In this document: in pieces, positions 26,649 through 47,099 of the stretch
Position numbering within the stretch: position 1 is the first letter of the stretch
How the letters are laid out: the number at the start of each line of letters is the position of its first letter
Origin: a virus
Lineage: Duplodnaviria; Heunggongvirae; Uroviricota; Caudoviricetes
Direction: 5' to 3' (one strand)
Length of the DNA stretch: 47,099 nucleotides
IMG/VR virus record: IMGVR_UViG_2534681604_000006
Location: 1 to 47,099 of that record
The notes under the pieces: model-generated
What the model saw: the letters and a program-made list of their open reading frames with translations, nothing else
Told to the model about the DNA's origin: nothing
The model's database searches: none
Program-made: the position numbers and the translations under genes

Positions 26649-26714
26649 CGTTTATGAAAATGCAGAAATAGCGCGCAAATGGCATCGTTCCTGTTTTTGT
26701 CAGGAGGAGCTATC

Positions 26715-26906
26715 ATGCTTATTGGCTATGTTCGCGTATCAACAAATGACCAGAACACCGATCTACAACGTAATGCGTTGAACTGTGCAGGATGCGAGCT
26801 GATTTTTGAAGACAAGATAAGCGGTACAAAGTCCGAGAGCCTAGGGCTGACACTGCTGTTCTTGATGCAAATTAAAGGATTTAATAGTGAGTTGTGGCCT
26901 TACTAA
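26715..26906 (+). pseudogene. Gin/Hin/Pin-family DNA invertase, truncated after about 40 codons
   Basis: MLIGYVRVSTNDQNTDLQRNALNCAGCELIFEDKISG... then unrelated sequence and a stop; RBS AGGAGGAG; a full invertase is about 190 aa. Confidence 0.7.
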
Positions 26907-29548: not shown

Positions 29549-32500
29549 ATGGATGAAATTTCCAGATTTATTGGAAAGATTGAGGTGCTTCACAAGACAG
29601 GATGTGCAACTGAACATTCGTACAGACCTGCTTTTATTGACCTCATCGAAAGCTTTAATAATGACATAACGGTTTTAAACGAACCTAAGCGCATTGAATG
29701 TGGTGCCCCCGATTTCATTATCCAGCGTGGAAATATTGTCGTTGGTCATTTGGAGGCAAAGGATGTTGGCGTGGATATCCGAAATCTCACAGGGCCGAAC
29801 AAAAAGCAGCAGCAGCGTTATCTTGATGCCCTACCTAATCTCATCTACAGCAATGGCCTCGATTGGGATTTCTACCGTGATGGGCAACTACTGGAATCGG
29901 TTACTATTGGTTCCATGGGGCTAGGTATCAAGTCAGATGCAGGCCAGTTCGACAAGTTGAAATCATTACTGGATGATTTTATTAGCCAGACACCTATCAG
30001 CATTACTAGCCCTCAAGAGTTAGCCGTGCGCATGGCGGGTAAGGCCAAGCTTATCAAACCTGTGTTCTTTAACGCTTTGGATGCTGATCTGCGATCTGGA
30101 AATGATACTGAGCTAGTTTTACAGTACAAGACCTTCAGAGACAACCTTATACACGGTATTGACCCGGAAAGTTTCGCGGATATTTATGCAGAGACCATCT
30201 GCTACGGTATGTTCGCAGCTCGACTACATGACAATACGTTGGATACGTTCAGTCGTCATGAAGCGTTGGACAAGCTACCCAAAACCAACCCGTTCCTAAA
30301 AAATCTATTCAGTTATATAGCTGGAAGCGGGTTAGACGAACGTATTGTTTGGATCATCGACGATCTTGCCGATATTTTTCGGGCAACAGATGTTGCGGCC
30401 ATCATGGCCGGTTTCGGCAAGCTCACTGGCCGACAAGATCCTTTCCTACACTTCTATGAAACCTTCTTGGCCGCTTATGACCCAGACAAACGCAAATCTC
30501 GAGGTGTTTGGTACACTCCGGAACCAATAGTAAATTTCATTGTGCGAGCCGTAGATGAAGTCTTGCAAACCGAGTTTGGTCTTAAAGATGGGCTAGGCGA
30601 TACATCGAAGATAAAAATCCCATGGGACACTGGCCAGCGTAAATTGACCAAGTCTGGTAGACCTACGGCCGATGGAAAAAACTTTATCACCGAAAAAGAC
30701 GTTCACCGGGTTCAGATTCTCGATCCAGCTACCGGCACTGGCACTTTCCTGGCGGAGGTAATCAAGCAGATCGCCCAAAAGGTTAACGATGTAGCGCCTG
30801 GCATGTGGAGTGGCTATGTCGAAAAGGAGTTGATTCCACGCATCCACGGATTCGAAATTATGATGGCCTCCTATGCAATGTGCCACATGAAACTGGACAT
30901 GATACTCACCGAATTGGGTTACAGGCCAAGCAGCAATCCACCGCGCCAATCAATATACCTAACTAACTCACTGGAAGAAGGTGACCCACCTAACTATAGC
31001 TTGCCATTCGCTAGCTGGCTTGCCACCGAAGTGAAACTCGCCAATACCATCAAGCGTGATATGCCTATTATGTGCGTGATTGGCAATCCACCTTATTTGG
31101 GCGAAGGCGGCGTTTCAGAAGGGTGGATTGGTAGACTTATGGACGACTATAAAAAAGAACCCGGCGGTAAGGAGAGGCTTAGGGAACGCAATCCCAAATG
31201 GCTGAATGATCTATATGTGAAGTTCCTGCGTATCTCCTCGCACTGGGTTGAAAAGAACGGTGAGGGTGTCTTGGGATTCATTACCAACCACGGCTATCTG
31301 GATAATCCCACCTTCCGGGGCATGCGTTGGCACTTGCTTCATACTTTTGACAAGATTTGGATTCTGGATTTACATGGCAGTTCCAAAAAGAAGGAGAAAA
31401 CGCCGAACGGTTCCATGGATGTTAATGTCTTCGACATAATGCAGGGGGTGTCCATCATAATCGGCGTTAAGAAAAAGCATAGTGGTAATGGTCTGGCTGA
31501 AGTAATGCGAGGTGATTTGTGGGGCAGTAGGGCGGAAAAATACGAGGCTCTGAGAAATCTTAACTTGACAAACGAGCTTTTCAAAAAAATTGAAATAAGA
31601 CCGCCTCAATATCCCTTTGTTACACAGGACTGGACTGATTTTGAAAGTTATCAGTCCGGATTTCCTATTAATATTTTTATGCCGGTACATGGAAATGGGA
31701 TTGTCACAAAACGGGATAAATTGAATATTCACTTTACTCCTAATGATGTTAAGCAAGTCGTTGAAGATTTCCTGACGCTCAGTGAGTCTGAAGTCCGGAA
31801 TAAATATAAACTTCCAAATGATGTCAGAGACTGGCGATATGAATGGGCTAAACAGGACATCGAAAGCAGGGTGGGAAAAATTCCAGTTCAGAAAATTGGT
31901 TATAGGCTCTTCGATCGTCGTTTTATCTTTTATTCGGGGAAAGCAAGAGGACTTATTGGTTGGCCAGTGGCACATATCATGGAACATTACATTCGTGGAA
32001 AGAATATTGGGTTACTGACCACTAAAGCACATAGAGATGCTGATTTTGCTCATGTATTTATAACTGATCTACCAACGGAAGCCATTCATTTCTCAGCTAC
32101 TAGTGGCTCAAATGCGATGAACTTTCCCCTTTACCTCTATCCGAAAGACGATCTGACAAAGCCCCAAGTTAATTTCGAACCCAAGCTCTTCGCCCGCTTG
32201 CAAAGATTGGCTGCTCATTCTGATTACGGCATACCCAATGAAATCGTTGTCTTTGATTATATTTACGGTGTGCTTCATTGTCCGCTCTACCGCAAGGCTT
32301 ATGCGGAGTTTCTTAAAACTGACTTCCCGCGCATTCCTTGGCCAGCCAGCCCGGATGAGTTTTGGCATGTCTCAGTCAAGGGCGGCGAGTTGCGGCGCTT
32401 GCACCTAATGGAACCATCAGCCATAGGTGATACATCATTTAGCTTCATGGGCGATGGCAATAACGAGGTGGATACCATCGGCAAGGCATCTTTCCGAGAA

Positions 32501-32725
32501 GGCAAGGTTTTTATCAATAAAACCCAGTACTTCGTATACGTTCCGGAGAATGCTTGGAACTTTCGTATCGGTGGCTATCAGCCTGCTCAGAAATGGCTCA
32601 AGGATCGCCAAGGGTGTACTCTGTCATTTGAGGATATAAGGCACTACCAAAGAATTATTAAGGTGCTCATCGAAACTGATCGTATTATGGCAGATATTAC
32701 AATGAATCTGGGTATTAAAGTCTAA
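29549..32725 (+). CDS. Single-chain type IIL/IIG restriction-modification enzyme (MmeI-like)
   Basis: N-terminal PD-(D/E)xK motif (APDFII...GHLEAKD), AdoMet motifs GVWYTPEPIV and ILDPATGTGTF, catalytic NPPY (VIGNPPY), C-terminal target-recognition region. Confidence 0.75.
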   Translation: MDEISRFIGKIEVLHKTGCATEHSYRPAFIDLIESFNNDITVLNEPKRIECGAPDFIIQRGNIVVGHLEAKDVGVDIRNLTGPNKKQQQRYLDALPNLIYSNGLDWDFYRDGQLLESVTIGSMGLGIKSDAGQFDKLKSLLDDFISQTPISITSPQELAVRMAGKAKLIKPVFFNALDADLRSGNDTELVLQYKTFRDNLIHGIDPESFADIYAETICYGMFAARLHDNTLDTFSRHEALDKLPKTNPFLKNLFSYIAGSGLDERIVWIIDDLADIFRATDVAAIMAGFGKLTGRQDPFLHFYETFLAAYDPDKRKSRGVWYTPEPIVNFIVRAVDEVLQTEFGLKDGLGDTSKIKIPWDTGQRKLTKSGRPTADGKNFITEKDVHRVQILDPATGTGTFLAEVIKQIAQKVNDVAPGMWSGYVEKELIPRIHGFEIMMASYAMCHMKLDMILTELGYRPSSNPPRQSIYLTNSLEEGDPPNYSLPFASWLATEVKLANTIKRDMPIMCVIGNPPYLGEGGVSEGWIGRLMDDYKKEPGGKERLRERNPKWLNDLYVKFLRISSHWVEKNGEGVLGFITNHGYLDNPTFRGMRWHLLHTFDKIWILDLHGSSKKKEKTPNGSMDVNVFDIMQGVSIIIGVKKKHSGNGLAEVMRGDLWGSRAEKYEALRNLNLTNELFKKIEIRPPQYPFVTQDWTDFESYQSGFPINIFMPVHGNGIVTKRDKLNIHFTPNDVKQVVEDFLTLSESEVRNKYKLPNDVRDWRYEWAKQDIESRVGKIPVQKIGYRLFDRRFIFYSGKARGLIGWPVAHIMEHYIRGKNIGLLTTKAHRDADFAHVFITDLPTEAIHFSATSGSNAMNFPLYLYPKDDLTKPQVNFEPKLFARLQRLAAHSDYGIPNEIVVFDYIYGVLHCPLYRKAYAEFLKTDFPRIPWPASPDEFWHVSVKGGELRRLHLMEPSAIGDTSFSFMGDGNNEVDTIGKASFREGKVFINKTQYFVYVPENAWNFRIGGYQPAQKWLKDRQGCTLSFEDIRHYQRIIKVLIETDRIMADITMNLGIKV

Positions 32726-32759: not shown

Positions 32760-33074
32760 TCCCAGTAGTTAAATACTCCACGATATTAAAATGCCTTACG
32801 AACTTCCGATTTTCGCTCATAACAGATATTTACTAGAGTTATGGTAGAAGGTATGTATGCTGGTTGGGGATAGTGTGAAAGAAAAGAAGACTGCTGCGCC
32901 GTTTGTCGTCACGTTGATCTTCATTGGCTATGCAAGTCATAATGCAAGGTGGGACAAAACTGAGACACATAAGGCCTCACAATGGCTTGTAAGGCTTTAC
33001 ATATTTTGATATGGAGGGACGTGTGAGCGCAGTGTTGATGGGGTAATACTTTGAATTAGAATCGGATTCTTATA

Positions 33075-33120
33075 ATTCGTAATGCGAAGGTCGTAGGTTC
33101 GACTCCTATTATCGGCACCA
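33075..33120 (+). other. 46-nt copy of the tRNA-Thr(CGU) 3' end, anticodon loop to CCA (prophage attR; attachment site used by the downstream island)
   Basis: ATTCGTAATGCGAAGGTCGTAGGTTCGACTCCTATTATCGGCACCA folds as the 3' two-thirds of a tRNA; the 5' part is absent, so this is not a functional tRNA gene. Confidence 0.75.
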
Positions 33121-33727
33121 TCAAGAAAATCAATAACTTAGCTTAACTTCTCTAAGAAATTGTATCTTCTGTTATCACTTACAAACGCCTATACGTTGTT
33201 ATGGGCTTTGGTAGTGTAACACGTATGGGCGAGTAGTTCACAGGCTCAACCTCGTAACAAGTTCCTTTGAAGCTGGAAGACGTGCCACCGTCTCTAAACC
33301 TTCTACCAAAACTCTTAGCAAGATGTTCCACACCTGGCGCGGTGTCCAATGATGCTACACGTCGTGAGACGTTGCAGAGGATAAACAGGCTAAATGATGG
33401 GAAGAGTTTTAAGTGCAATAGTGGATCAAAGCCCACCTCTTCAAAACCTAACTTGATCGGGAAAGAATCAAGCTCTAGCACGGTTTCGTCCACCGGAGTA
33501 CAACGGGTGCCTGATAAGAGAAGAACTGCTAAGACTTCATAGCTTTTGTGAAAAAGCCCTTTTTAGTGGATACGCCTACGGCGCTTATTTTTTGGGATAG
33601 CCCATCAAAGGCGCTTTATGGCTCCTATTGTCTTGAAAATGTATCTTTACTTGTATTGTGTTTTATGCGTAGTCTCCCTGTGTAGTATGTAACTTGTTAA
33701 TTTTCATATGAATACAGAGGTAACACG

Positions 33728-33886
33728 ATGAAAAACATTGCAGCTATCAAACGTAATAACCGCAAGATTCACGCTCGTAAGTTCCTGTCTACGCCAGAAG
33801 GAAAAGCCTGGCTAGAGCGTAAACAGAGAGAGAACGAAGAAAGAAAACTCCTTAGTGAGTTGAAATGGCTTAGAGAGGATTTCTGA
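33728..33886 (+). CDS. Small basic hypothetical protein (52 aa)
   Basis: ATG at 33728 preceded by GAGG; below the 60-aa cutoff of the ORF track. Confidence 0.3.
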   Translation: MKNIAAIKRNNRKIHARKFLSTPEGKAWLERKQRENEERKLLSELKWLREDF

Positions 33887-34177
33887 AAATCTCCAGAACG
33901 CAACAGGACGCATTCTAACGCTGTTTTCATTGCTTGGTATAGGGATGTATAGGTGATGTGTGTTTAATGCGTCTGTGAGCTTGTTTTGTGCCTTATTTTG
34001 CATTTTCATAATGCAGGAGAGAACACGGAAAACCTTAAAATTAATTATTGGGGTATTTAAGGCTATTTTCAGGTTATTTAAGGGTATTAAACTTGATTTA
34101 ATTGATTAAAATATAAACAGATAATTATGTATCTTATTGATTTATAAGGTTATTTTTAAATAAAGGTAAATAAAAAA

Positions 34178-34227
34178 TAAATAGCCATAAATAGCTATAA
34201 ATACGTCTAAATACATCTAAATACCTA
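34178..34227. repeat. Five tandem 10-bp iteron-like repeats
   Basis: AAATAGCCAT AAATAGCTAT AAATACGTCT AAATACATCT AAATACCTAT, one helical turn apart. Confidence 0.7.
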
Positions 34228-34703
34228 TATCCCTTCCTTATGGCTAGATTGCGAGAGGTGCTTAACGCGATTTTCAGCGCCCCCCGATCTGGAAAATCCA
34301 GAATCCCCAAATATCAGCAAGGAATTTTCTTGCGTAATCAACATCGTTTTTACCTATTAAATCATTACACAGAAAGCCTTTCTGTAATGTCTCTCACTAA
34401 ACTTTCACTAAACACGAGAATGATCGGTTTTATGTCGGATCAGATGCTAGAAACAGCACCACGTCTCACAAGGGCTGTAAGCGATGAAACCAGTGTTTAT
34501 GCGGGTACAGGTCAAAATATAGGCCAAAATCCATTTAACATAATAATCGTAATATGCACTAAGGAACACATAGAACGCCTTGAATTGATGTATCAGGGGA
34601 AAAGTGATGGATTTTTTACGTAGGAGCACGAAAGGGCTTCTATTGACTTTTGTATGTTATGAAATATAATTAAAGGTTTTTTTGTTTTTATCGTGTGATG
34701 TAG

Positions 34704-35150
34704 TGGATTACACAGGGGAATAGATTAAATGGTGTTCTGTTTATACAGGTTTATTTGTTAGATCAACAATTTGGCATTTCTAAACAGATGTTTGAACGTT
34801 GCCAAATGCCTTGACAACACAAGAAAAGGGCTTGCTATGCCACGCATTACACGAAATAAGGCTGTAAAAACAAAATAAATTTTAAAATTTGCACAAACGA
34901 GAGAACTCATTAAGAAACAAGCAGAACAATTTTTAGCCAACAATTTCTGATGGTGCTCTGTAAGCCGCATTACACAAGGCTTTGCGAAAGTGATGTAAAA
35001 GTGAAGAAAGTAAGAATTGCACTTTTAAGCTACTTTTCATTGAATTTTTTAGTATGGAATTACACAGGGAATAGAGAGCATTATTCTATGATTTACACAG
35101 GGAATATAGGGGGATTATGGCACACACATAGAAAGGCATTACACAGAGTG
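34704..35150. repeat. Dispersed ATTACACAGGG(AATA) direct repeats, at least six copies
   Basis: GGATTACACAGGGGAATAG, CATTACACGAAATAAGG, CATTACACAAGG, GGAATTACACAGGGAATAGAG, GATTTACACAGGGAATATAGG, GCATTACACAGAG. Confidence 0.5.
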
Positions 35151-35191
35151 CTATGTGACAAATGGATGTAACGAGAGGTTACATTCAGCTA

Positions 35192-35326
35192 CCCCCACAG
35201 AATTCTGTTAATCTTAACTTTTAAAGAGATTTTTACCCTAACAAAATTCTGTTACCCCACCCTAACAGAATTCTGTTAGACACCCCCACAGAAAACTGTT
35301 AGACACCCCCACAGAATTCTGTTACC
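35192..35326. repeat. Array of five direct repeats each containing the palindrome ACAGAATTCTGT
   Basis: Palindrome copies at 35197, 35241, 35265, 35288 and 35311, the last four at about 23-bp spacing, each flanked by CCC(C/T)...TTA(G)ACA. Confidence 0.7.
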
Positions 35327-36542
35327 TATTAGATCATTTATTAAATTACTTATTAAATTATAATATTATATATTTATTTATATGATCTTTTGCCTTCCGG
35401 CGTTAGCTTCACTCTCTGGCAAGCAGCCTTACTCCGCTACCTTTGGGCTTCGTGGCTGGCCCGTTCCGCTCACACCGAAAGCAAAGCGTTACTTTCTTCG
35501 TGTAACTTCGTTGGCGGTAACGCCCACGAAGAAATACTATTGCGCTGTGCGCAGTAAGAGTAATCACCTAACCAATCATACTGATTGCTTACGTGTTAAC
35601 TCTCTCTAACTCTTAATTACCCTCCTACATTTAATAACTCTGTTATTCTCTGTAGTTGTGTAATTACTCGAAGAGAGAGCGGCTAAAGCTCAATTACACT
35701 CTGCTTTCCTCGTGTAATTTCACTAAGCCTCAATACAATTTCACTTCCTACATTCTGTAGTCGTGTAATTGTTTTCGGTGGAAAAGCCAGAGGCGACACC
35801 GAAAGAGAATTCTGATCTTATTAATCTTATCTATCTTAGTTAATCTTCTTACTTATCTTACTTACTTTATCTACTTTATTATTAATAATAGCTTTATAAG
35901 CTCTGTGTAGCTCTCTGACGCAAGAAACAGCATTCAGGAAGGGAATCACCTTAGAAAAGTGTTCTTTGCGTCATAATGTGTTTTATGAAGGATTCAGAGG
36001 TGTTTCATAACAGGAGTGTATAGAGGATACTTTAGGTAATTAAAAATAAGGGGTCTAAATGCTTCTCTAACAGCATTAAGCAGGGTAGGGAATGGAAACG
36101 CATTGCCTACACATATAAGCTCACTACAGAGCTTTACAGAGCGTTTTATAAAGTGACTCTCTATCTTATATCTACCATCACCTTTTCATATACCTAACAA
36201 ATACAAAATAAGCCCCTTAAATAAGCCTCTGGCGAGCTAAACAACCTCTACATAAGAGAATGTATTGCTTTTATCAAAACTTCGTTAGAACGCGTTTTAG
36301 AGCGTTTTAGACAATAATGAAGAATAGCACTACACAGAAGAGCACGAATAGCTAAGAAAAAATGTAAGTGCATGAAAAAGATCAGTTTTTTTATGGAAAG
36401 GTATTGACAAATGTTTCTTTATATGTAATAATAGGTATTAGAGGGACAGAAAAACATTCTTCTCTAAATAATCAAAATCAATGCACTTTGAAGCCGTCAG
36501 GCTTGCAAGGTGTTTTTCTTTTAACTGAATAAGGAGTTTTTT

Positions 36543-36731
36543 ATGAAATGGTTTACCCCGGAGCACGTCATCTCGGCATTTAAAAAAGGTGAGCTTACAC
36601 GCCATCAAGTAGTAATGAATCGTAATATGGCAAGGAGTCGAGGTTATCCAGAGCGAGCAGCTTGCTTCAATGAAGCACTCAAGATTATTGATGAACTAAG
36701 AAAAAATGAAAAAGAATCTGAAACAGAGTAA
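36543..36731 (+). CDS. Hypothetical small protein, first gene of the island operon
   Basis: 62 aa; strong RBS AAGGAG 8 nt upstream. Confidence 0.55.
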   Translation: MKWFTPEHVISAFKKGELTRHQVVMNRNMARSRGYPERAACFNEALKIIDELRKNEKESETE

Positions 36732-36750
36732 AGAATAGAAGGAGAAAACT

Positions 36751-36918
36751 ATGAGCGAAACTAAGAAACCAATTCCGCGCACTTACCTACACGTTGACCC
36801 TGAAATCTTCAAGGTTTTATTTGCTGAAGCCAAGAAAAGGCAAATTATGGTCAGTGATTTGATGTTAGAAATCATTACTGAAGCAGCAGAGAACATCAAA
36901 CAAAAAAAGGGTAAGTGA
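36751..36918 (+). CDS. Ribbon-helix-helix-like small DNA-binding protein (55 aa)
   Basis: ATG at 36751 with RBS GAAGGAG; N-terminal beta-strand-like RTYLHVDPEIFKV followed by helices; not in the ORF track because it is under 60 aa. Confidence 0.5.
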   Translation: MSETKKPIPRTYLHVDPEIFKVLFAEAKKRQIMVSDLMLEIITEAAENIKQKKGK

Positions 36919-36969
36919 TCCTCATTCACTTTAGTAGCGCATTAAGCGTGATTTATAAGGAGATTTTTA

Positions 36970-37623
36970 ATGATTAATGAAGAACAATTTGTAAAAGTTC
37001 CTATGTGGATTCTAAAAATAAGCCAAGTAAACGGGCATAAATTTACAGATAGTGCTAAAAACCTTTACTGCTATCTGAAAGGGTTTGATCGTGCATTTCC
37101 CTCTTACGCTAAGATAGGCGATGTTTTTGGCATAACACCAAGAGCAGCAGAGGAAAGGGTTAAGAAATTGCTCGAAATGGGATTAATTATAAAAGATGCA
37201 CGACCAGGAAGTTCTAATGTCTATCAAGTGGTAGATATTCCACAAGAAGAAGCTAGACAAGAAGCCAAGACACAACAAGAAGCTACTGTTAAAGCTGTTC
37301 CTGATCAGCTTCCCCCTACGGAAGATAATAAACAGCCTTCTTTTGATGTTCTTGATGATTGGGATGCGCCTTTGCCGTGGGAGACGGAAGAAACACCTGT
37401 TTCATCAAATGAAAAGGTAGCTAATGATAATGAGGAGGATGTGTTAGAGAATTTTGCCTCTCTTATCATCCGGGAGAAACACAGAAGAACAGGAGGATCA
37501 TCATTTATAGACTTTGCAAATTCACTAGCTTATAGACACGGGCTAAAACGACCAAATGGTATTGAGGCATATTTTGCTAAGAAACATCCCAAAGTATATG
37601 AAGACTTTGATATTCCATTTTAA
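36970..37623 (+). CDS. HTH-domain protein, putative replication initiator/organiser
   Basis: 217 aa; N-terminal winged-HTH-like region (KNLYCYLKGFDRAFPSYAKIGDVFGITPRAAEERVKKLLEMGLI), acidic linker, basic C-terminus; RBS AAGGAG. Confidence 0.55.
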   Translation: MINEEQFVKVPMWILKISQVNGHKFTDSAKNLYCYLKGFDRAFPSYAKIGDVFGITPRAAEERVKKLLEMGLIIKDARPGSSNVYQVVDIPQEEARQEAKTQQEATVKAVPDQLPPTEDNKQPSFDVLDDWDAPLPWETEETPVSSNEKVANDNEEDVLENFASLIIREKHRRTGGSSFIDFANSLAYRHGLKRPNGIEAYFAKKHPKVYEDFDIPF

Positions 37624-37634
37624 TAAGGAGGGTT

Positions 37635-37913
37635 ATGATTCAATATTTAGTAAAAAATCAAGTAGACAGAATTCAGTGTAATGACACAGGAAAACGCATC
37701 TATGAAACACTTGCTTACCTCTATAAAGGAAAGCCAACACCGCTAAAATATAGCGATGTGTTACATCGAGCAGGGTGCTCTGAAGATGGTTTAAAATTCT
37801 GGCTTAGACAGCTATCAAATTTCGGTGTTATAGAGATTAAAGAATTATCTTTCTCTACATTCAATCTCAAAAGACTGGATAAAGAAATAGACTTCATCTA
37901 TTCCACTCTCTAA
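37635..37913 (+). CDS. Hypothetical protein
   Basis: 92 aa; RBS AAGGAGGG. Confidence 0.55.
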   Translation: MIQYLVKNQVDRIQCNDTGKRIYETLAYLYKGKPTPLKYSDVLHRAGCSEDGLKFWLRQLSNFGVIEIKELSFSTFNLKRLDKEIDFIYSTL

Positions 37914-38045
37914 AATCTCTCTATGTAATTAAAATATAAAAGGAAAACATTATTATGGTAATAGCTATGTGGTGGTTGTTGTTTTTTATGCTCGTAGAAA
38001 CATACTTCGGGGTGTTTTCCTTTAAAAGAAAAGGAAAAGTAAATA

Positions 38046-38456
38046 ATGGCAAAAAGAAAAAACAACGTTGTTAAGAAGATCGGTGATTCAGCTTCTCTTC
38101 TAAGTAAACCTAAATCTATTCTAAGACGCAAAGACTTTAAAGAGCTAGTTACGCTCACCAAGCAAAATAGCGCCCCTGGCGAATGGAAAACAGAGATTAT
38201 AGAACATTCTCCCTCTGTGCCTTGCGGAGATGAATTTAACGCCTTACAAGAAATCTTATCTTCAACACCTGGCGTATTCTGGAAACCTAGAAAAAGAAAA
38301 GAGTATATCGTTGATAGCTCTGATTTGCGCAAATACCAGATTTTAGGATTTGAAGATTATAATCACTACGTCGGTTATCTCGCCACCAATGGCCTAAATA
38401 ATTTAGTTCCTGAATTCCAAATTTTAGATAATGCTGATCACTATGGAGACTTTTAA
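38046..38456 (+). CDS. Hypothetical protein with basic N-terminus
   Basis: 136 aa; RBS present. Confidence 0.55.
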   Translation: MAKRKNNVVKKIGDSASLLSKPKSILRRKDFKELVTLTKQNSAPGEWKTEIIEHSPSVPCGDEFNALQEILSSTPGVFWKPRKRKEYIVDSSDLRKYQILGFEDYNHYVGYLATNGLNNLVPEFQILDNADHYGDF

Positions 38457-38457
38457 T

Positions 38458-38796
38458 ATGAACAAAAACACGTATGACACAATTTATTCACTAATTAATT
38501 ATTATGAGGATGATTACCTCCTGCCTTTAAACCGCGCTGAACTTGAAGCATACAAAGAAAACACGCCAGCGGCACTAAATGAGGCGTTTAAACACTGGGA
38601 TTTAGCTGTGAATGCCTTTGAGCACCTCTCTAAGCGTGTAGAGATGCTCTGTAAGCGTGAGAACGCATATCTAACAGCGGATCAGCTATTTGAGCTATCA
38701 AACTGGATAGAAGATATTGAATCGGACGTTCGCTATGTGGGAGATGGCCTTATTGAACTAGCTCAACGCTTAGGCGCTGCTATCACAGAAGAATAA
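38458..38796 (+). CDS. Hypothetical protein
   Basis: ATG at 38458 with GGAGA RBS, directly after the upstream stop; ORF track lists 38431 as an upstream alternative. Confidence 0.5.
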   Translation: MNKNTYDTIYSLINYYEDDYLLPLNRAELEAYKENTPAALNEAFKHWDLAVNAFEHLSKRVEMLCKRENAYLTADQLFELSNWIEDIESDVRYVGDGLIELAQRLGAAITEE

Positions 38797-39128
38797 AAAA
38801 AGCAACAAAAAAGTTGTAAAATATCTTGACATTTCATCTATTGTATGTTAATATAATTATATAGGGTGATTATTTTTCCTTTATTGGTTCGATATTAAAA
38901 ATTCTTCTTGTCGTTAAAGGGGAGTAAAATCTCCGCTCCCCGCTTCTCCTCCTTAAGTAAATACTGTGTCATTATTACCTCTTTTTTCCTTTGTTATGCA
39001 TACATCTTGGAGTGTGCATAACATAGGGTAATTACAAAGGCGGCTTTAAATGCTGCCTTTTATTTTGCCCGTTATGCAACTTAAAAGTTGTATTTCTTAC
39101 TTTAAACAAGGTAACAAGGTTTATATAA

Positions 39129-39341
39129 ATGTTGTTTTTAAACGATAAAGAGCAAATCATCAAGTATAAAGATGAAATGCTGAAAATTAATCCACAAATT
39201 ACCGAAATGGTAGCTAAATACGCTGGGTGTTCTGTCGAGGAAGTAGAACGATGTGTTGAAAAATATTTTTCTCCTTCTTCTCCGTCTACACCTTCCATTA
39301 ATGAATTAATCAAATTAAAAGCTAAGGAGATTACTAAATGA
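39129..39341 (+). CDS. Hypothetical small protein
   Basis: 70 aa; stop overlaps the next start. Confidence 0.45.
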   Translation: MLFLNDKEQIIKYKDEMLKINPQITEMVAKYAGCSVEEVERCVEKYFSPSSPSTPSINELIKLKAKEITK

Positions 39342-39700
39342 TTATTGATTTAGACACTCTGTTTCCAGTCCGAAAGACTTTCACAGATATTGTAAGTTAT
39401 TGTACTGATCCGTTTGCCTCTGTAGAAAGCAAGGTTTTTGCTTCTCTTCCTGCTGATGTTGAATGCGGCGACTTGATCACCAGCACTGGCGCTAAATATG
39501 TATCAGGAGATGATATCTATGTTGTTATGAGTGAATTTGTAACGGCTGGAGAAAACAAGCCTGTAGATGTTTTACGTAGCAATGCTGGCCTTGTATGCAT
39601 TAAAGCTGATGCGCTGAATGCTGTAAGTGAAGCAGCAAAAACAGCCTTAATTAAAAAAGGCTTCCAGCTTGAAGGCTTCCACTCTGTTTTCACTTCTTAA
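39338..39700 (+). CDS. Hypothetical protein
   Basis: 120 aa; RBS AAGGAG. Confidence 0.55.
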   Translation: MIIDLDTLFPVRKTFTDIVSYCTDPFASVESKVFASLPADVECGDLITSTGAKYVSGDDIYVVMSEFVTAGENKPVDVLRSNAGLVCIKADALNAVSEAAKTALIKKGFQLEGFHSVFTS

Positions 39701-39718
39701 TAAAAGGAATAATAATAA

Positions 39719-40747
39719 ATGATTCTAGGTAATGATTACGTTGATTTAGCTCCTCTGTTCTCTGCGCATAGCACTAGAAACTATCTGCTTTCTACTCTCG
39801 ACTTCACTGATCCGGTGGGCGTTAGTTCTCATAAAGTAGCTGTTTCCCAGCTTGTCGAAAGCAACGAATCTCTCTTTAACAAAGAGACAAGCCGTTTTAG
39901 TTCTGAACACAACGTTACTAAGCGAGAACAAGGTAAAGAATGGCTGATCGAAATCCCGTATTTTCTTCGTGAAGATGTGATCCGTCCTTCTGATGTTCAA
40001 GGCAAACGTAAGCCTGGCACTGATTTCCAGGAAACACTCACTGATATCTATGCGGAATATATCGCTAAACACAATGTTGCATTCCAGCGTACAAAAGAGA
40101 GCGTATTGGCTGCTTCTTTGTTCTCTGGCAAAACTTACACGCCTAAAACTGATGATGTTCTTATCGAATGGGGCAAGCTGTTTAACGTATCAGCTATGAA
40201 AGCCACGGTTAACGCTTCCAGCACTGACACCACGAAGATTTTTAAAGAATTTGATCAGATTGCTACTAACATTTTTGAAATCACACAAAGCCAGGCGTCG
40301 GCGGTAGAACGCATTGTTGTTTTCTGTAAACCTGACGCCTTCTCTGCAATTCGATTCTCTGCTGGTATGGCAAACGCATTCCAGTATGTAAGCCCACTGG
40401 AAGAGGGGAATGTTGTGTACCAGCGTCGTGACCTGCTACCAGGAGTGACAGCGTTCACTATTCCAGGAACTAACATTGATGTTGTTAAACTGGTAGATCC
40501 GCTACATCTGGCACATATGACCGCAGACGCTGTAGCGATTCCGAAGTTTGCTAAAGGCTCTAACGTCTACCAGGCCATCTATGGGGCGGCTTCCAGCACC
40601 TTTGAACTGATTAATGCCGCTCCTGCTGAGGTGTATAGCTACAGCTATGAATCTTCTCGTGGTGATGCTGTTAACGTTGTTACAGAGAATAGCCAGATGG
40701 TTGTAAACCACGGTGTAGGCTTCTCCGTTCAAATCACTGTTAAATAA
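39719..40747 (+). CDS. Hypothetical 342-aa protein, possibly structural; followed by a strong terminator
   Basis: Largest well-formed ORF in the middle of the operon; RBS AAAGGA; no motif recognised with confidence. Confidence 0.6.
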   Translation: MILGNDYVDLAPLFSAHSTRNYLLSTLDFTDPVGVSSHKVAVSQLVESNESLFNKETSRFSSEHNVTKREQGKEWLIEIPYFLREDVIRPSDVQGKRKPGTDFQETLTDIYAEYIAKHNVAFQRTKESVLAASLFSGKTYTPKTDDVLIEWGKLFNVSAMKATVNASSTDTTKIFKEFDQIATNIFEITQSQASAVERIVVFCKPDAFSAIRFSAGMANAFQYVSPLEEGNVVYQRRDLLPGVTAFTIPGTNIDVVKLVDPLHLAHMTADAVAIPKFAKGSNVYQAIYGAASSTFELINAAPAEVYSYSYESSRGDAVNVVTENSQMVVNHGVGFSVQITVK

Positions 40748-40766
40748 TATTTTAACGTGTAATAGA

Positions 40767-40798
40767 GGCGTGGCGTGTATTCACGCTTCGCCTTTTTT
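40767..40798 (+). terminator. Intrinsic terminator after the 342-aa gene
   Basis: Nested GC stems GGCG..GCGTG tatt CACGC..CGCC followed by TTTTTT. Confidence 0.65.
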
Positions 40799-40833
40799 AT
40801 TTATTTTTTTAAATTTTGAGAGGTGATTAAAAT

Positions 40834-41037
40834 ATGGAAGTGATTTTGAAATCAAAAAATGGTGTACACGTACATTTAGATGCTAATGATTCTAGAGGCT
40901 TGTTAAATCTGAAATATCTATGTTCTCTTTTAGATGTTCCCTATGAAGGCGTAAAAGCCCGTATGTTCAGATTAAACGAGAGTATTGATCAAGCTCTGCA
41001 CCATTTCTTAAGTAAAGAAGGTGATAAAAATGATTAA
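40834..41037 (+). CDS. Hypothetical small protein
   Basis: 67 aa; RBS GAGGTGA. Confidence 0.5.
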   Translation: MEVILKSKNGVHVHLDANDSRGLLNLKYLCSLLDVPYEGVKARMFRLNESIDQALHHFLSKEGDKND

Positions 41038-41051
41038 TAAGGGGATTTTAA

Positions 41052-42884
41052 ATGTTAGAAATTAACACTTCTAAAATTAAGAACACAGTAACATTTAGTG
41101 TAGATAAAGACAGCTTGAAAAAAGCGAAAGATTCTATTACAGGCTTAAAGAAACTCGCAGAAAATATCAAGCCCGCTAAATTAAGATTTGATAATGTCAC
41201 TAAAGGCTATAAGAAAGCACAAAACGAAGTAGACAAGATTACCCAGCAAAAAGCCAAAACAGAAAAGCAAAATCAAAGAGCACAAGCTGCCGCAGCAAGA
41301 GCACAGGCAAGGCAACAGCAACAAATAGCAGCACGTAAAGAGAAAGCAGAATTAAAGCTCCTCGATGTGTCAAGCTCTATCAGTGCAATGCACCGCCTCT
41401 CTGTAGCTGAACAATACAAAGCTATTGCACAGGCTAGAGAGATAGCAAAACAATATGAGCAAGGGGCTATCTCGCTTGCACGTATGAATAGCCAGATGAA
41501 ACGCCTACAACAGCAACAACGTAAGATCAATGGCAACAGGAAAGCCCAATTAGCCCCCGTTAAGGGAGGATCAGGGAATGCCGCCACTATGGGCGCTCTG
41601 TTATTTGGAGGCGCTACGGCTGCTGCTGGCGTGATGGCTGTTAGTAAAGCCTCTGAATTTATGGCTAACAGCTTTGCGAATGCTGAAGCCCAAGGGGAGC
41701 TAATTCAACGGGCCAAGCTGGGCGGTGTAGACGTTAACCAGATGTATAATATTACAGAATGGGCGTATAAAAACGGCGTTGACTCTATGATGGGTGATCA
41801 AGGGGCTAGGAAATACCTGGATCAGATGAAAGATGTTAGGGAACGTGCCGCAAAATCCTACAGTGAAGCTGAATTGGTGAAAGATAAGCAAACCGGAAAA
41901 TCTAAATGGAAAGGCGGTGATAACGCTATTAATGAACTTCTAAACATCGGTGTTATTAACAAAAGCGACCTTAAAAAATTTGCTGATAATCCAGCCGGAT
42001 TAATTTCTAAGGCTGTTAATGGAATGATGAAAAAAGGGTTTTCAGACTCCCAAATTGGACAACGTTTAGAAGACCTGGGCGATGATTTGATGCTTACGTC
42101 AAAATATTGGCAACGTTCCGTTAAAGATGTACAAGAAAGTATTAATCAGCAAAAAGCCTCTGGAAAATGGCTAACAGAAACACAGCAAGACTCTATTGTT
42201 AAATTCAGAGAGCTAAACAGACAGCTTTCACAGCTTTCTGATGCAAGACAAGTAGCATTCGTAGACGGCTTTATGAAATCTCTCGATCCAAAAGTAACGG
42301 AAGAGTTTATGAAAAACCTTTCTAATCTCACTCCGTATTTTACGAAGCTGGGCGAAGCGTCTGGAAGTCTCTTTGAGGCCATTATGAAGATTGTAAACTG
42401 GTTTAATCGTAATGATGATAAGACAGATGCTATTCAGAAAAATATGGGAGATGCACCGCCATTAAGCAATGAAGGAATGAAACAGAATCTTTCTAATCTC
42501 GTTCCTGATAAATATAAAGGCGCTGGCACTGCAACAACTACACCTGATAATACTCATTCCCTCTTTAACACAATTAAGGGATGGCTTTTCGATGATAATG
42601 CTTCTTCTGTGTCAGATGTAAAAATGTCAGTTAGTGAAGCACCGATAACCAATCTCAAACAGGGTGCTTTAAATAATCTTGCAATGACAACTCCGGCTTA
42701 TAATTTATCTCCTGTGTTTAACCTGAATCCAACGTTTGAAGTGGTAACAGAAGTTCCTCTTACTATTAATTCTGACACATCAAGATTAAGCGATTATGTG
42801 GATTTTACAGCGAGAGCAAGTCGGGATAGCTTCTTGAAATCATTAACATTAACCAGCTTATCAGGACAATCCAACGGCGGGTAA
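41052..42884 (+). CDS. Large coiled-coil protein with Gly/Ala-rich hydrophobic segment (tape-measure-like or other extended structural protein)
   Basis: 610 aa; Q/A/K-rich heptad-like region (QRAQAAAARAQARQQQQIAARKEKAELK) and GGSGNAATMGALLFGGATAAAGVMAV segment; RBS AAGGGG. Confidence 0.55.
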   Translation: MLEINTSKIKNTVTFSVDKDSLKKAKDSITGLKKLAENIKPAKLRFDNVTKGYKKAQNEVDKITQQKAKTEKQNQRAQAAAARAQARQQQQIAARKEKAELKLLDVSSSISAMHRLSVAEQYKAIAQAREIAKQYEQGAISLARMNSQMKRLQQQQRKINGNRKAQLAPVKGGSGNAATMGALLFGGATAAAGVMAVSKASEFMANSFANAEAQGELIQRAKLGGVDVNQMYNITEWAYKNGVDSMMGDQGARKYLDQMKDVRERAAKSYSEAELVKDKQTGKSKWKGGDNAINELLNIGVINKSDLKKFADNPAGLISKAVNGMMKKGFSDSQIGQRLEDLGDDLMLTSKYWQRSVKDVQESINQQKASGKWLTETQQDSIVKFRELNRQLSQLSDARQVAFVDGFMKSLDPKVTEEFMKNLSNLTPYFTKLGEASGSLFEAIMKIVNWFNRNDDKTDAIQKNMGDAPPLSNEGMKQNLSNLVPDKYKGAGTATTTPDNTHSLFNTIKGWLFDDNASSVSDVKMSVSEAPITNLKQGALNNLAMTTPAYNLSPVFNLNPTFEVVTEVPLTINSDTSRLSDYVDFTARASRDSFLKSLTLTSLSGQSNGG

Positions 42885-42917
42885 TTCCCGCCATAACATT
42901 ACAAGGAAATTATTATT

Positions 42918-43631
42918 ATGGCGACCGCCGGGATTTTAACCATACGTGCAGCAAATACTCCAGAACAACACGTTCAGGCTGTTTACAAAGCAGAACAAGA
43001 TATAAACTCTACAAAAAACGAAAATAGCAAAGCTAATACAACAAAAGGAGAAAATGGATTTGCTATTGTTACCAGTGGGCTGGCATCTTCTGGTAATGAC
43101 GTTTATGAAAATTATATGGCGCTGGCTTTTGACAGTGTAGATGATGTAAACGTGAGACGTTCGGCAGATGTTACAAGCTACCCCGTAGAAAATGGTGCTA
43201 CTGTGTCTGATCACGTTCAAATTAAAAACAATAAATTTTCTCTTAAAGGGCGTATCTCTGAAACACCGATTAAAAGCGATCCTGGCTTGTTAAAGAGTGC
43301 AGGGGTGAACGGGAACAGAAGATCATTAGCTATCGACTACCTGAATCAGATTATGGACAGTAGACAGCCTTTTCTTCTTGTTACAGAAAATAAAACTTTT
43401 GAGAACGTTGTTTTAACAGGCATCGAATACACAGAAGAAGCAAGCGAATCCCTGGTATTTGATCTTAGCTTTGAGCAGATCAGGCTCGTTTCGTATGGCA
43501 CAGTAAACACTGTAGCTATCAAAACACAGCCATCTAAGAACATCGGGGCGAATATGAAAAAACGTGTTAACACTGAAAAATCAAGTAGTGAAGGTGAAGA
43601 TACTATTACGCCTGCCTTTAAGCAGGAATAG
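42918..43631 (+). CDS. Hypothetical protein
   Basis: 237 aa; RBS AAGGA; last gene of the operon. Confidence 0.55.
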   Translation: MATAGILTIRAANTPEQHVQAVYKAEQDINSTKNENSKANTTKGENGFAIVTSGLASSGNDVYENYMALAFDSVDDVNVRRSADVTSYPVENGATVSDHVQIKNNKFSLKGRISETPIKSDPGLLKSAGVNGNRRSLAIDYLNQIMDSRQPFLLVTENKTFENVVLTGIEYTEEASESLVFDLSFEQIRLVSYGTVNTVAIKTQPSKNIGANMKKRVNTEKSSSEGEDTITPAFKQE

Positions 43632-43673
43632 CCGTAAACGCCTCTAAAACGCTCTGTAACGATGTAATTGTAA

Positions 43674-43704
43674 AAGAGGCTACCAATCTATGCTGAAGCC
43701 TCTT
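43674..43704. terminator. Hairpin between the convergent operon and the integrase gene
   Basis: AAGAGGCT (43674-43681) / AGCCTCTT (43697-43704) 8-bp stem with a 15-nt loop. Confidence 0.45.
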
Positions 43705-43712
43705 TATTGCGT

Positions 43713-44990
43713 CTATGGCGTTGTTTTACGCCTTAAATTTGATTTTTTATTGATTGATAAGCCTTTCTCTATTTCAGGGTAGCGTAGAAGCTCAATATAG
43801 TTTTTAAGCTCTACTGGAGAAGCTGCATTCTTGCTATATGTGCGGAATGTCTCTGTATTGCCGCGTGTATGGCCCAGGAGAAGGGCGATCCTGTCTTCTG
43901 GAATTTGATTTCGATCAAGAAGCTGTGCTACTCCGTGTCTCAGAGAATGAAACACCTTCCTTTCTGTTCCCTTTTCCCCTAAAGCCTTTCGTTTAGCTCT
44001 TGTAAATCTCTGCGTGTGCCACGTGGAACGTTTACCATCAGCACGCTCTGTAATGCTGGCGTGATAGAACAAAAAGCCATTATGAGGCTTTTCACGAAGA
44101 GATAACACCAATGGAGTGATAAGGCTATGCACAGGCACAAGACGTGCCGCAGCTTTCGTTTTTCCCTGTGTGATTTCAAAACACAGCACACCTTCGATCT
44201 CTTTCACATCGTCTATTGTGAGACTTGCTATCTCATTGATCCGCATCCCTGTATATAAACCGATAAGACACAAAGCCATCATTTCTTTGTTTTCTGCTGA
44301 ATTACCGGAAAATACTTGCAACACCTGCAATAGCTCTTTGTTAGAAAATGCCTCGTAGCTCTCTCTACTTTGTGCCACATCAAGCCTATGCCCTCGCCAG
44401 GGGGAGAGCGCCCTTTCTGGCGCATCGTGGTAACGTGATGAAGCTAACTCCCATAGCTGGGCCATTGGGCTGATATAATTTGCAATTGATTGTTGTGAAA
44501 GGGTTTTTTGCATGTGTTCTATCCAGCCTGTAACAGTGGTGCGGCTTACATCTTGCAATGCAATATCAGGCTTTTTACGGTAGGAGAGAAACATCTCTAC
44601 CGCTTTTCTTGCCTTAGCTAAAGTGGCTGGCTTCTTCTTCGTGCTGTTAATTGTCAGGTAGATTTCAAGAATTTTAAGCAATGACGGACACGAAGACGCT
44701 GTATCTTGCATTCTGGTAGCTGTTTTGGCGTATTTAGCCTTACTGCGTAACAGTTCCAGCGTGTTCTCTATTGTGCTGTTTACAGGGGCGACACTCTCCC
44801 GTAGACAATGGTATTCATCTGCAATCTGATCACGCTTTCTACGTGCAACACGAAGATTACTTGTATGCAGACTCCTAACAAACGTCCTTTTTCCTTCAAA
44901 AAAGGGCTGCATATACACAGGCAACGTGATCCTCAAATAGTAGTTACCGTAAGAATCACAGATTATGTATTGATTGGGCTTGTATCTCAT
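43713..44990 (-). CDS. int: Tyrosine site-specific integrase
   Basis: C-terminal catalytic motifs (RLVPV..., FHSLRHGVAQLL, LLGHTRGNTETFRTYS); start taken at ATG 44990 with GGGGAG RBS (upstream ATG at 45047 lacks one); adjacent to the att core. Confidence 0.85.
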   Translation of the reverse strand: MRYKPNQYIICDSYGNYYLRITLPVYMQPFFEGKRTFVRSLHTSNLRVARRKRDQIADEYHCLRESVAPVNSTIENTLELLRSKAKYAKTATRMQDTASSCPSLLKILEIYLTINSTKKKPATLAKARKAVEMFLSYRKKPDIALQDVSRTTVTGWIEHMQKTLSQQSIANYISPMAQLWELASSRYHDAPERALSPWRGHRLDVAQSRESYEAFSNKELLQVLQVFSGNSAENKEMMALCLIGLYTGMRINEIASLTIDDVKEIEGVLCFEITQGKTKAAARLVPVHSLITPLVLSLREKPHNGFLFYHASITERADGKRSTWHTQRFTRAKRKALGEKGTERKVFHSLRHGVAQLLDRNQIPEDRIALLLGHTRGNTETFRTYSKNAASPVELKNYIELLRYPEIEKGLSINKKSNLRRKTTP

Positions 44991-45133
44991 AAACTCCCCG
45001 GCTAAAGTGTCGGAGCGTTTGTAATGTGAAAATTGATTGTAACGCATAGAAAATGATGATTTTTTCTATAAGATTCAATCAATTAGTAATGGTCGTAGGT
45101 GATGGCATTAACACGAGATTAATCGAGTGTTTT

Positions 45134-45152
45134 ACTCCTATTATCGGCACCA
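45134..45152. repeat. Right att core direct repeat (19 nt of the tRNA-Thr 3' end) preceded by a degenerate tRNA-like arm
   Basis: ACTCCTATTATCGGCACCA identical to 33102-33120; 45081-45133 resembles the tRNA 3' half with substitutions and an insertion; sequence just right of both cores is also similar (AAATCAATAA). Confidence 0.7.
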
Positions 45153-45237
45153 TTTAAATCAATAAGTTACCCATCATTAGTACCTTCCTTATTTTTTGAC
45201 TGGGACAAATTTGGGACCGATGGGTTCAGGATCGAGT

Positions 45238-45498
45238 CTATTTGCCATGCGTGTTCGGTAAGGTGTTAGGCGCGAGGTGAGCATATCGACGAACCATTTC
45301 GATAGACTCCCAGCCTCCCATTTCCTGTAATACTGACAACGGGACTCCGGCCTGAACCAGCCAACTTGCCCAGGTGTGTCTCAAGTCGTGAAATCTGAAA
45401 TCATCAATACCAGCTCGTCTCAGCGCCGCTTTCCTTGTACACAGATACCCAGCGGTAATGATTTGCAATTCGAAAGAGTTCGTATTTCTCTCCCACAA
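45238..45498 (-). pseudogene. Integrase C-terminal remnant (P4/CP4-type tyrosine recombinase), N-terminus deleted
   Basis: Encodes only ...[42 protein letters not shown]...; no genuine start codon. Confidence 0.6.
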
Positions 45499-45935
45499 AT
45501 ATAAATACTGTTTAAAAAGGGGAGAGAAAACATATTTTAATTATCACCAACGTAAATTATTTTTTGACGTTATTAATAGAAGTGAAGGAATAAATAGGCG
45601 TATTCTACGATTGCAACAAAAACAACGATATTAATCAGTTTATGACTGATTTGTTGTATTTTATTCTCTTTCATTGGTACTTCCTCGCTTTAAAAAAGAG
45701 TGCACTTCGTAAGTGCCTTATATATAAATAGCGAGTTTGGTCAACCAATTTTTTGACATGTATCACAAATTTGAATGGATGTATTACATCAGCCATCTTT
45801 TATAGATAATTAATTCCTTAACGGAAACCAGCCTGTTCCTTTCGATACCTGAATTTGATCCCATAGTTTATCCAGAATGGTTAGTTCAGGAACGCGCTGT
45901 GGATTAAGGGGGGAATTTCATGACTTCTACCTGAT

Positions 45936-46157
45936 TCAGCTAAATGTACCCATCACCAGCCTTTTACCGATCGCCGCAAGTGTCAGCCAGCGGAAAGCGC
46001 ATACGTCATTCGAGTGGTGATTATGGCGGTTAAAGAGAGGAGAAAAGAAATTCTGCAGAAGAAATCCATTCGCGCTATGAAGGTCAACGCTATCAAAACC
46101 TGCTTTAATGGCTCTTTTATGACGTCTTCCGGCTAAAATGATTGTGTCTATAAACAC
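45936..46157 (-). pseudogene. Possible fragment of an Old-Yellow-Enzyme-type NADH:flavin oxidoreductase
   Basis: Short stretch KAGFDSVDLHSANGFLLQNF resembles the OYE active-site region, then similarity is lost. Confidence 0.3.
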
Positions 46158-46166
46158 CCTTCATGA

Positions 46167-47099
<933 letters not shown>

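Follow-up and report, generated by a model that had tools for sequence, protein, structure and literature searches.

The DNA examined here is a stretch of 47,099 nucleotides from the IMG/VR virus record IMGVR_UViG_2534681604_000006, hereafter called the window. In it, three integrative elements very probably stand in tandem at the 3′ end of the threonine tRNA gene thrW. These elements are the right-hand part of a lambdoid prophage, a 12-kb island and a decayed earlier prophage of the SfV/P22 type. A previous sequence-only reading had proposed at least three integration events at one site, and prophage, island and decayed predecessor account for these. Repeats of the tRNA 3′ end lie around each element, an integrase is found beside one attachment (att) site of each, and the elements are polymorphic for presence and absence with the same boundaries. 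Feature coordinates are collected in Table 1.

Repeats and attachment sites at the thrW 3′ end

Positions 33075-33120 of the window match nucleotides 31-76 of E. coli thrW, i.e., its 3′ end, without a mismatch over 46 nt, and thrW of locus L001 was identified by ARAGORN as a tRNA-Thr with anticodon CGT. The 19-mer ACTCCTATTATCGGCACCA is present at 33102-33120 and 45134-45152 and nowhere else in the window with up to three mismatches allowed, and it was not matched in shuffled sequence (0/100 shuffles). The core identity extends by one base, a T at 33121 and 45153, to 20 nt, and five further bases 5′ of the core are alike with two mismatches, giving 23 of 25 nt overall. Thus, the perfect tRNA-Thr(CGU) 3′-end copy and the second 19-nt core that had been noticed from the sequence alone are both exact. 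No intact tRNA-Thr(CGU) was detected inside the window by ARAGORN or Rfam, and the copy at 33075 was called as a tRNA by neither of them.

The identity of the 46-mer as the prophage right attachment site (attR) was supported by reconstruction of a phage attachment site (attP). A query in which the 46-mer was flanked by the 80 nt preceding it and the 100 nt that follow the second core was found as one contiguous stretch in the free phages SfIV, SfI, SfV and SfII (95-97% identity, 100% coverage). This stretch is annotated as attP in two of those Sf phage records, in one of them as similar to P22 attP. Since the halves are contiguous in the Sf phages, two halves of one kind of attP stand 12 kb apart in the window. 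The left half belongs to the resident prophage and the right half to its decayed predecessor. The same P arm precedes the 46-mer in loci L004, L008, L017, L026 and L027. The resident element carries both the attP arms with the 46-bp identity block and an integrase of the same lineage, as is typical of SfV/P22-type thrW prophages.

An older integrase remnant had also been suspected beyond the second core, and our analysis identified it as an SfV-type stump. The open reading frame (ORF) at 45238-45498 on the minus strand matches Pfam Phage_integrase (6e-19), and 58 of its codons correspond, at 98% identity, to residues 285-342 of an SfV-type integrase from a thrW prophage of E. coli. The stump lies 86 nt from the 19-nt core. 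The remnant as a whole is 97-98% identical to the left attachment site (attL) region of intact SfV-type prophages (L004, L007), and homology stops near 45463. As this end is joined to ykgR-proximal host DNA at approximately 45482, the rest of the earlier prophage must have been lost by deletion.

Two further similarities pointed out in the sequence-only reading were also recovered. The first is the motif AAATCAATAA, present right of both cores at 33127-33136 and 45156-45165. In an alignment of nine junctions, for which the STEC005 row consisted of the core and right flank alone, 20 core positions were invariant, and AAATCAA and TTA were found shortly 3′ of the core in all nine; this is the alignment with thrW and its downstream sequence that had been suggested as a check. 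The native thrW trailer agrees with the SfV arm at 17 of 22 positions and with the CP4-6 arm at 17 of 22, and the island arm shares a 10-mer with the native trailer after a 3-nt offset. The common AAATCAATAA reflects the resemblance of each element's arm to the native trailer, as if every attP had been copied from a thrW locus. The second is a degenerate tRNA-like stretch left of the right core, at 45081-45100 (ATTAGTAAT / GGTCGTAGGT), which aligns to thrW 31-54 with one 5-nt gap; the alignment score was matched by 0/2000 shuffles, and the stretch is unchanged across all island copies examined. It shares its first tRNA nucleotide with the 46-nt block, which suggests that the attP of the island may have descended from a longer tRNA copy that was interrupted later.

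Occupancy of thrW in E. coli

The island (at least 80% covered, ~95-96% identity) was found in 231 of 5,426 complete E. coli genomes (~4%). Junction-specific queries against the same number of E. coli genomes returned the empty site, i.e., thrW followed by its native trailer, in 1,642 genomes, the junction of prophage arm, 46-mer and island in 25, and the junction of island, core and SfV-type arm with integrase in six. Empty, single and tandem occupancy, the comparison that had been called for across strains, are hence all present in E. coli. In strain MB06234 the island stands directly 3′ of an intact thrW and ends in the 19-nt core, beyond which the native trailer of thrW and yagP/paoD are found. 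In SA186 it is likewise alone at an intact thrW, and beyond its core lie the SfV-type arm and integrase pseudogene also seen in the window. STEC005 (L004) carries the prophage with the same cargo and attR alone at thrW, in the order proBA, thrW, integrase, prophage, cargo, 46-mer and native downstream DNA.

The boundaries of the island were surveyed by script in each of the fetched loci. On the left there is a full thrW or a 46-nt copy, with a shorter exact copy in L006, L021 and L029, and on the right every copy ends in the 19-nt core, with the same island arm before it. Beyond this core, depending on the locus, the DNA continues with the native trailer, with the SfV-type arm or with one of a number of P4-like integrase elements. 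More complex arrangements were also found. Strain 08-00022 carries a lambda-like (siphovirus) prophage followed by a diverged island variant, and in GF153 the island next to thrW is followed by a complete SfV-type integrase together with a decayed prophage, then by another tRNA copy and finally by a P4-like remnant adjoining ykgR. At least four integrase lineages occur at thrW.

These data also bear on the possibility that prophage and island form one composite that moves as a unit, with the internal 46-mer being a relic. The two are adjacent, and their junction recurs in the 25 genomes mentioned above. However, the island is alone at thrW in most of its 231 carriers and SfV-type prophages with the same attR exist without it. 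Furthermore, the partner prophage varies, having a myovirus-type module in the window and being a lambda-like siphovirus in 08-00022. We thus regard a composite as extremely improbable and retain the array of separate elements.

To the right of the island, some genomes carry a P4-type integrase remnant, a MarR-family regulator and the Vat autotransporter (L016, 15588-21029), and others carry P4-like satellites with a retron reverse transcriptase and Psu; these P4-type and Vat variants were seen in L016, L013, L015 and L019. The published vat island at thrW, where avian and extraintestinal strains carry the vat toxin gene, seems to include the 12-kb element as its left part.

Formation of the array

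We propose that the array was built by successive site-specific recombinations of tyrosine integrases, each insertion restoring an intact tRNA gene on the left and leaving a partial 3′-end copy on the right. From left to right, it would comprise an intact thrW located beyond the window, the ~44-kb prophage with its SfV/P22-type integrase, the 46-nt copy, the 12-kb island and the 19-nt copy. The right end would be formed by the attL arm and integrase stump of the earlier SfV-type prophage, continuing after a deletion into host DNA at ykgR. The earlier prophage would have arrived first, and the island would have integrated at the intact thrW on its left side, whether that prophage was still whole or already reduced to a stump. 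As for the present prophage, it may have preceded or followed the island: either it entered thrW afterwards, or it was there first and its 46-nt attR was the target of the island. The outcome is identical for both routes, so the order of the last two insertions cannot be told from the structure, but SA186, with island and stump and no prophage, mildly favours entry of the prophage after the island. The sequence-only reading had placed the integration of the island in the 46-mer. Of this, the view of the island as a separate element bounded by repeats stands, as it is found alone at thrW in L001 and L002, whereas the 46-mer as its target is only one of the two routes.

Two integrase families are active at the site, as judged from the repeats: the SfV/P22 type with a 46-nt block and the DUF6538 type of the island with 19-20 nt. 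The 46-nt block begins in the anticodon loop, and the 19-20-nt block runs from the T-loop to CCA. The assignment of crossovers follows the published sublocation scheme for tRNA-targeting integrases. Given the difference in repeat length, the 19-nt copy would be no target for an SfV-type phage, while any copy could serve the island. Consequently, the single attachment site that had been proposed for all elements holds at the level of the tRNA gene, but the identity block differs between prophage (46 nt) and island (19-20 nt).

Some points count against this scheme. The crossover positions and the activity of the integrases are deduced from the lengths of the identity blocks, and the intact thrW of this genome is placed, also by deduction, ~0.8 kb past the left end of L035. 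The 43-nt attP junction expected of an excised, circular island had no exact match in the viral or metagenome contig collections, and Pfam and PHROG recognised no terminase, portal or excisionase gene in the island. The absence of the junction from those collections is compatible with excision. IMG/VR matches to the island capsid protein were predicted proviruses from isolate genomes and not virion DNA, and a capsid-protein scan of genome contigs returned one truncated locus only.

The array itself is an ordinary, established hotspot structure and not new biology. Its value is that it illustrates clearly how elements accumulate at a tRNA hotspot and how their cargo is replaced. For annotation, it means that the prophage ends at 33120 and not at 45152. 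It also exposes the island as a candidate new satellite family, which is the more interesting part.

Table 1. Features of the window, with positions counted from its first nucleotide
Feature	Position	Strand	Remarks
Right ~33 kb of ~44-kb lambdoid prophage	1-33074	+	Myovirus-type structural module
Type IV methyl-directed restriction enzyme (DUF262)	26940-28829	-	PADLOC mREase_IV, E=0
Type ISP/IIG restriction-modification enzyme	29549-32725	+	PADLOC REase_MTase_IIG, 1.7e-281
P arm of SfV/P22-type attP (prophage side of attR)	32995-33074	+	Contiguous with 46-mer and P′ arm in free phages
Exact 46-nt copy of thrW 3′ end	33075-33120	+	Prophage attR; last 19 nt are the left att of the island
12-kb integrative, satellite-like island	33121-45133	+	12,032 bp including right core (to 45152)
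Non-coding block common to Stephanstirmvirinae phages	34243-34288	+	Invariant 29-nt core at 34249-34277
Second, weaker collinear block	34771-34808		
Five iterons (ACCCCCACAGAATTCTGTTA) followed by AT-rich stretch	35191-35324	+	Putative replication origin
Consensus promoter	36404-36432		
Replication-initiator-like protein (winged helix, lambda O-like)	36970-37623	+	PHROG replication initiation, 1e-10; Pfam HTH_36, weak
Major capsid protein (lambda gpE-type, HK97 fold)	39719-40747	+	Pfam Phage_cap_E, 2.5e-14
Tape-measure-like protein, 610 aa	41052-42884	+	PHROG 16051 (tail length tape measure), 1.6e-53
Tail tube initiator (Dit-like)	42918-43631	+	Pfam Dit_like, 2.6e-29
Island tyrosine integrase	43713-45047	-	Pfam DUF6538, Phage_int_SAM_5, Phage_integrase
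Degenerate copy of thrW 31-54	45081-45100	+	Within attP arm of island
Exact 19-nt core of thrW 3′ end	45134-45152	+	Right att of island
Remnant of earlier SfV/P22-type prophage	45153-45463	-	P′ arm 45153-45237 and C-terminal part of integrase
Host chromosome	45482-47099	.	ykgR 45573-45674 (-); LysR-family regulator 46206-window end (+)

Resident prophage and host

The structural genes of the prophage are 97.5% identical to those of Escherichia phage vB_EcoM-611R5, and its nin/Q/lysis region is 98.5% identical to that of SfI. Loci L014 and L035 are identical to the window wherever they overlap it. In L035, which like the window derives from scaffold GL870856.1 (assembly GCA_000190495.1), the integrase and an excisionase-like gene lie ~10 kb left of the window and are transcribed leftward, which gives a prophage of ~44 kb. 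The integrase is encoded on the minus strand and has 387 aa; its readable N-terminus (first 128 aa, 113 aligned residues) shares 98% identity with the SfV-type integrase of E. coli STEC005. Just beyond this integrase, ~11 kb left of the window, the intact thrW of this genome is expected. The sole tRNA genes of the window, a phage-borne pair of tRNA-Asn(GTT) and tRNA-Thr(TGT) at 2015-2170, sit between the Q antiterminator and the prophage lysis genes and are unrelated to the thrW fragments.

The restriction pair next to attR (Table 1) was found with 99.6% identity at the attR end of thrW prophages in six E. coli genomes, and in related E. coli prophages the same slot is filled by retron Ec67, ompT or other genes. 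Different genes in one attR-side slot indicate that cargo is exchanged within the prophage and not at the tRNA site alone. In addition, a Hin/Gin-type DNA invertase gene at 26679-26906 ends after ~45 residues, beside oppositely oriented tail-fibre and assembly genes. It appears that the tail-fibre inversion switch of the prophage has been frozen where the restriction-enzyme cargo starts.

The host flank on the right is ~89-90% identical to the ykgR/LysR region of E. coli, compared with ~96% for the island and 99.6% for the prophage cargo. From these values, the host is probably a non-coli Escherichia lineage that has these elements in common with E. coli through horizontal transfer.

Gene content of the island

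The left 3.4 kb of the island are gene-poor and AT-rich, and Rfam returned no match there. This part holds two blocks that occur in the same order in Stephanstirmvirinae phages, where both are intergenic and located upstream of a homologue of Phi92_gp001. The first is 95.7% identical to phages Antha and PD06 and is also present in one Klebsiella phage. Its 29-nt core is invariant among the island copies and identical in Stephanstirmvirinae phages of E. coli and Klebsiella, although the sequence on either side is no longer alike. It may act as a packaging signal, as a promoter or operator or as a recombination site, or it may encode a peptide N-terminus. A phage tRNA was considered for the 46-nt phage match and rejected, as none was called by ARAGORN.

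The putative origin and part of the initiator are exchanged together. In other island copies, different iteron families replace the stretch at 35191-35324 along with the N-terminal domain of the initiator, as seen at 35191-35327 and 36981-37328 in the window, 6154-6261 in L001 and 5236-5646 in L016. Some copies carry three or four different iteron families stacked in one origin region. The island iterons were not found in the phage stretches compared. Over its first 83 aa, the initiator matches one winged-helix domain of the Phapecoctavirus Mt1B1_P17 protein QNJ49226 at ~98% identity. A 239-nt stretch of the island is 99.6% identical to Justusliebigvirus muut and contains a 55-aa ORF (36751-36918), upstream of the initiator, that is 100% identical to muut_153. 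Several ORFs between the initiator and the capsid gene had no Pfam or PHROG assignment.

The three structural genes of the island keep the gene order of phage phi92. The capsid protein is 22% identical over its full length to phi92 gp124, the tape-measure-like protein 31-51% identical to gp134 and the tube initiator 60% identical to gp135 (PDB chain 21vq_N, 'Phi92_gp135', E=1e-78). A 120-aa ORF at 39338-39700 precedes the capsid gene and is possibly decoration-like. The island integrase is 444 aa long when counted from the first ATG, and the E. coli annotation, with the start at 44990, gives 425 aa. The integrase start lies 87-144 nt from the right core, and the protein is 98-99% conserved among island copies. 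No excisionase was recognised among the small ORFs of the island by Pfam or PHROG. Between the att core and the start of the integrase lies a 23-nt inverted repeat (45031-45084; 83% complementary, 8-nt spacer), which may function as an operator or be bound by the integrase or a host factor. None of the island proteins matched a defence model in PADLOC.

Relatives of the capsid protein (38-64% identity) were found in Klebsiella, Enterobacter, Citrobacter, Cronobacter, Serratia and Sodalis. The loci examined in Klebsiella, Enterobacter and Serratia have the same 11-12-kb layout and gene order, occupy other chromosomal sites and carry no tube-initiator gene. Taken together, the comparison points to a maintained family of mobile elements rather than debris. 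Other members of the family have a second small recombinase in their left part, which the copy in the window does not have. It is of the resolvase type in some E. coli copies and a tyrosine recombinase of 183-205 aa in Klebsiella, Enterobacter and Serratia (L010, 3969-4508; L017, 4197-4736; L043, 2968-3585; L046, 3138-3689; L047, 4166-4726).

Possible nature of the island

The island is most likely either a phage satellite or an anti-phage island, in both cases tied to virulent myoviruses related to phi92 and phAPEC8. We hold this with less confidence than the array; as neither an excised form nor a packaging gene was found, it is put forward as a working hypothesis.

As a satellite, the island would be excised upon infection by a Stephanstirmvirinae (phi92/phAPEC8-like) phage, replicate from its iteron origin and be packaged with its own capsid, tape-measure and tube-initiator proteins together with helper parts. 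Its integrase, the initiator with iterons and the three structural genes in phi92 order are consistent with such a cycle, as are the patches of nearly identical phage DNA, namely the 239-nt stretch, the DNA-binding domain of the initiator and the 46-nt non-coding block. The 12-kb size and the gene order are, moreover, conserved across Enterobacterales. However, a small terminase subunit, a portal and a recognisable packaging site were not found in the island, its attP junction was not found in viromes, the Klebsiella, Enterobacter and Serratia relatives have no tube-initiator gene, and our literature search found no published description of the island. On balance, we give this explanation a chance that falls just short of even. 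A more specific version is possible but somewhat more doubtful, in which the island would represent an undescribed family of Enterobacterales satellites that exploit Stephanstirmvirinae. Such satellites would sense or copy their helper through the shared DNA-binding domain and the non-coding blocks, carry exchangeable iteron cassettes and provide their own capsid, tape-measure and tube-initiator proteins, making them the E. coli counterpart of the PLE of Vibrio (phage-inducible chromosomal island-like elements) and their phage ICP1.

The same phi92-related homologies could alternatively serve defence. In that case the diverged copies of helper structural proteins and the protein with the helper's DNA-binding domain would poison phage assembly or replication, and the island would not be transduced. 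The hotspot is rich in defence cargo, which agrees with this, but the lack of PADLOC matches among the island proteins does not, and the conserved integrase and origin point to mobility rather than to a fixed defence locus. We therefore consider a dedicated defence role unlikely.

Less probable still is that a small prophage has left the island behind as an inert remnant. Most genes for virion and lysis are indeed missing from it. Nevertheless, hundreds of genomes carry the same gene set intact, with 94-100% protein identity, and other genera retain the architecture, while the exchange of cassettes comprising iterons and initiator domain argues for ongoing function. A satellite or anti-phage island thus remains the preferred explanation. 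If the island parasitises or blocks phi92/phAPEC8-like phages, phage-therapy candidates of that subfamily would be affected, and satellites of virulent phages would become readily accessible to study in E. coli.

Comparison with known systems

thrW is among the most-used tDNA sites in E. coli (PMC7545054), and tandem arrays are resolved explicitly by TIGER (PMC12424338). The array described here agrees with the tRNA-gene arrays of Islander and TIGER in that the boundaries between successive elements are marked by copies of the tRNA 3′ end, with the intact gene at one end. There is no essential difference, the particular feature here being two integrase families with different repeat lengths. 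Phages SfV, SfI, SfII, SfIV and P22 have the same type of thrW attP, the 46-bp identity block and the integrase lineage in common with the resident prophage. The Sf phages differ in carrying O-antigen gtr genes next to attR, where the window has the restriction pair, and in their virion module, the window having another one of the myovirus type.

Among the elements known at this tRNA gene, CP4-6 of E. coli K-12 also has its integrase on the minus strand beside the right-hand repeat. However, its repeat is 49 nt long and its IntF is only 24% identical to the island integrase. As no other island protein matches CP4-6, a relationship between the two was rejected. EcCIMP1 is a phage-inducible chromosomal island (PICI) located at tRNA-Thr between proA and yagU, in tandem with a second island (PMC11773190), and its reported direct repeat TCCTATTATC falls within the 19-nt core (PMC11773190). 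EcCIMP1 has AlpA, a primase, Vat and the temperate helper Kapi1 and lacks structural genes (PMC11773190), whereas in the island the initiator is O-like and there are genes for capsid, tape measure and tube initiator, with relatives in virulent phages.

P4-like elements, PICIs, capsid-forming PICIs and Vibrio PLE have in common with the island that they are integrative elements of 10-18 kb with their own integrase and replication module and genes resembling those of the helper virion. The island does not fall into any of these groups. With respect to PICIs, it has an integrase and an O-like initiator, and neither AlpA, a primase nor a small terminase was recognised by Pfam or PHROG. Of the capsid, portal, protease, head-tail connectors and small terminase of capsid-forming PICIs, it has only the capsid and possibly the decoration-like ORF. 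Psu, Delta/Ogr, Sid, the alpha primase-helicase and an Arm-DNA-bind_3 integrase, which mark P4-like elements, are absent from the island, and the P4-like elements seen in other genomes are separate neighbours of it. To our knowledge, the combination of capsid, tape-measure and tube-initiator genes occurs in none of the known satellite families. PLE have a large serine recombinase, a RepA_N initiator and ICP1 as helper, and the island a tyrosine integrase and an O-like winged-helix initiator. The helper of PLE is a large virulent myovirus, as is the candidate helper of the island, and the resemblance between island and PLE is functional only.

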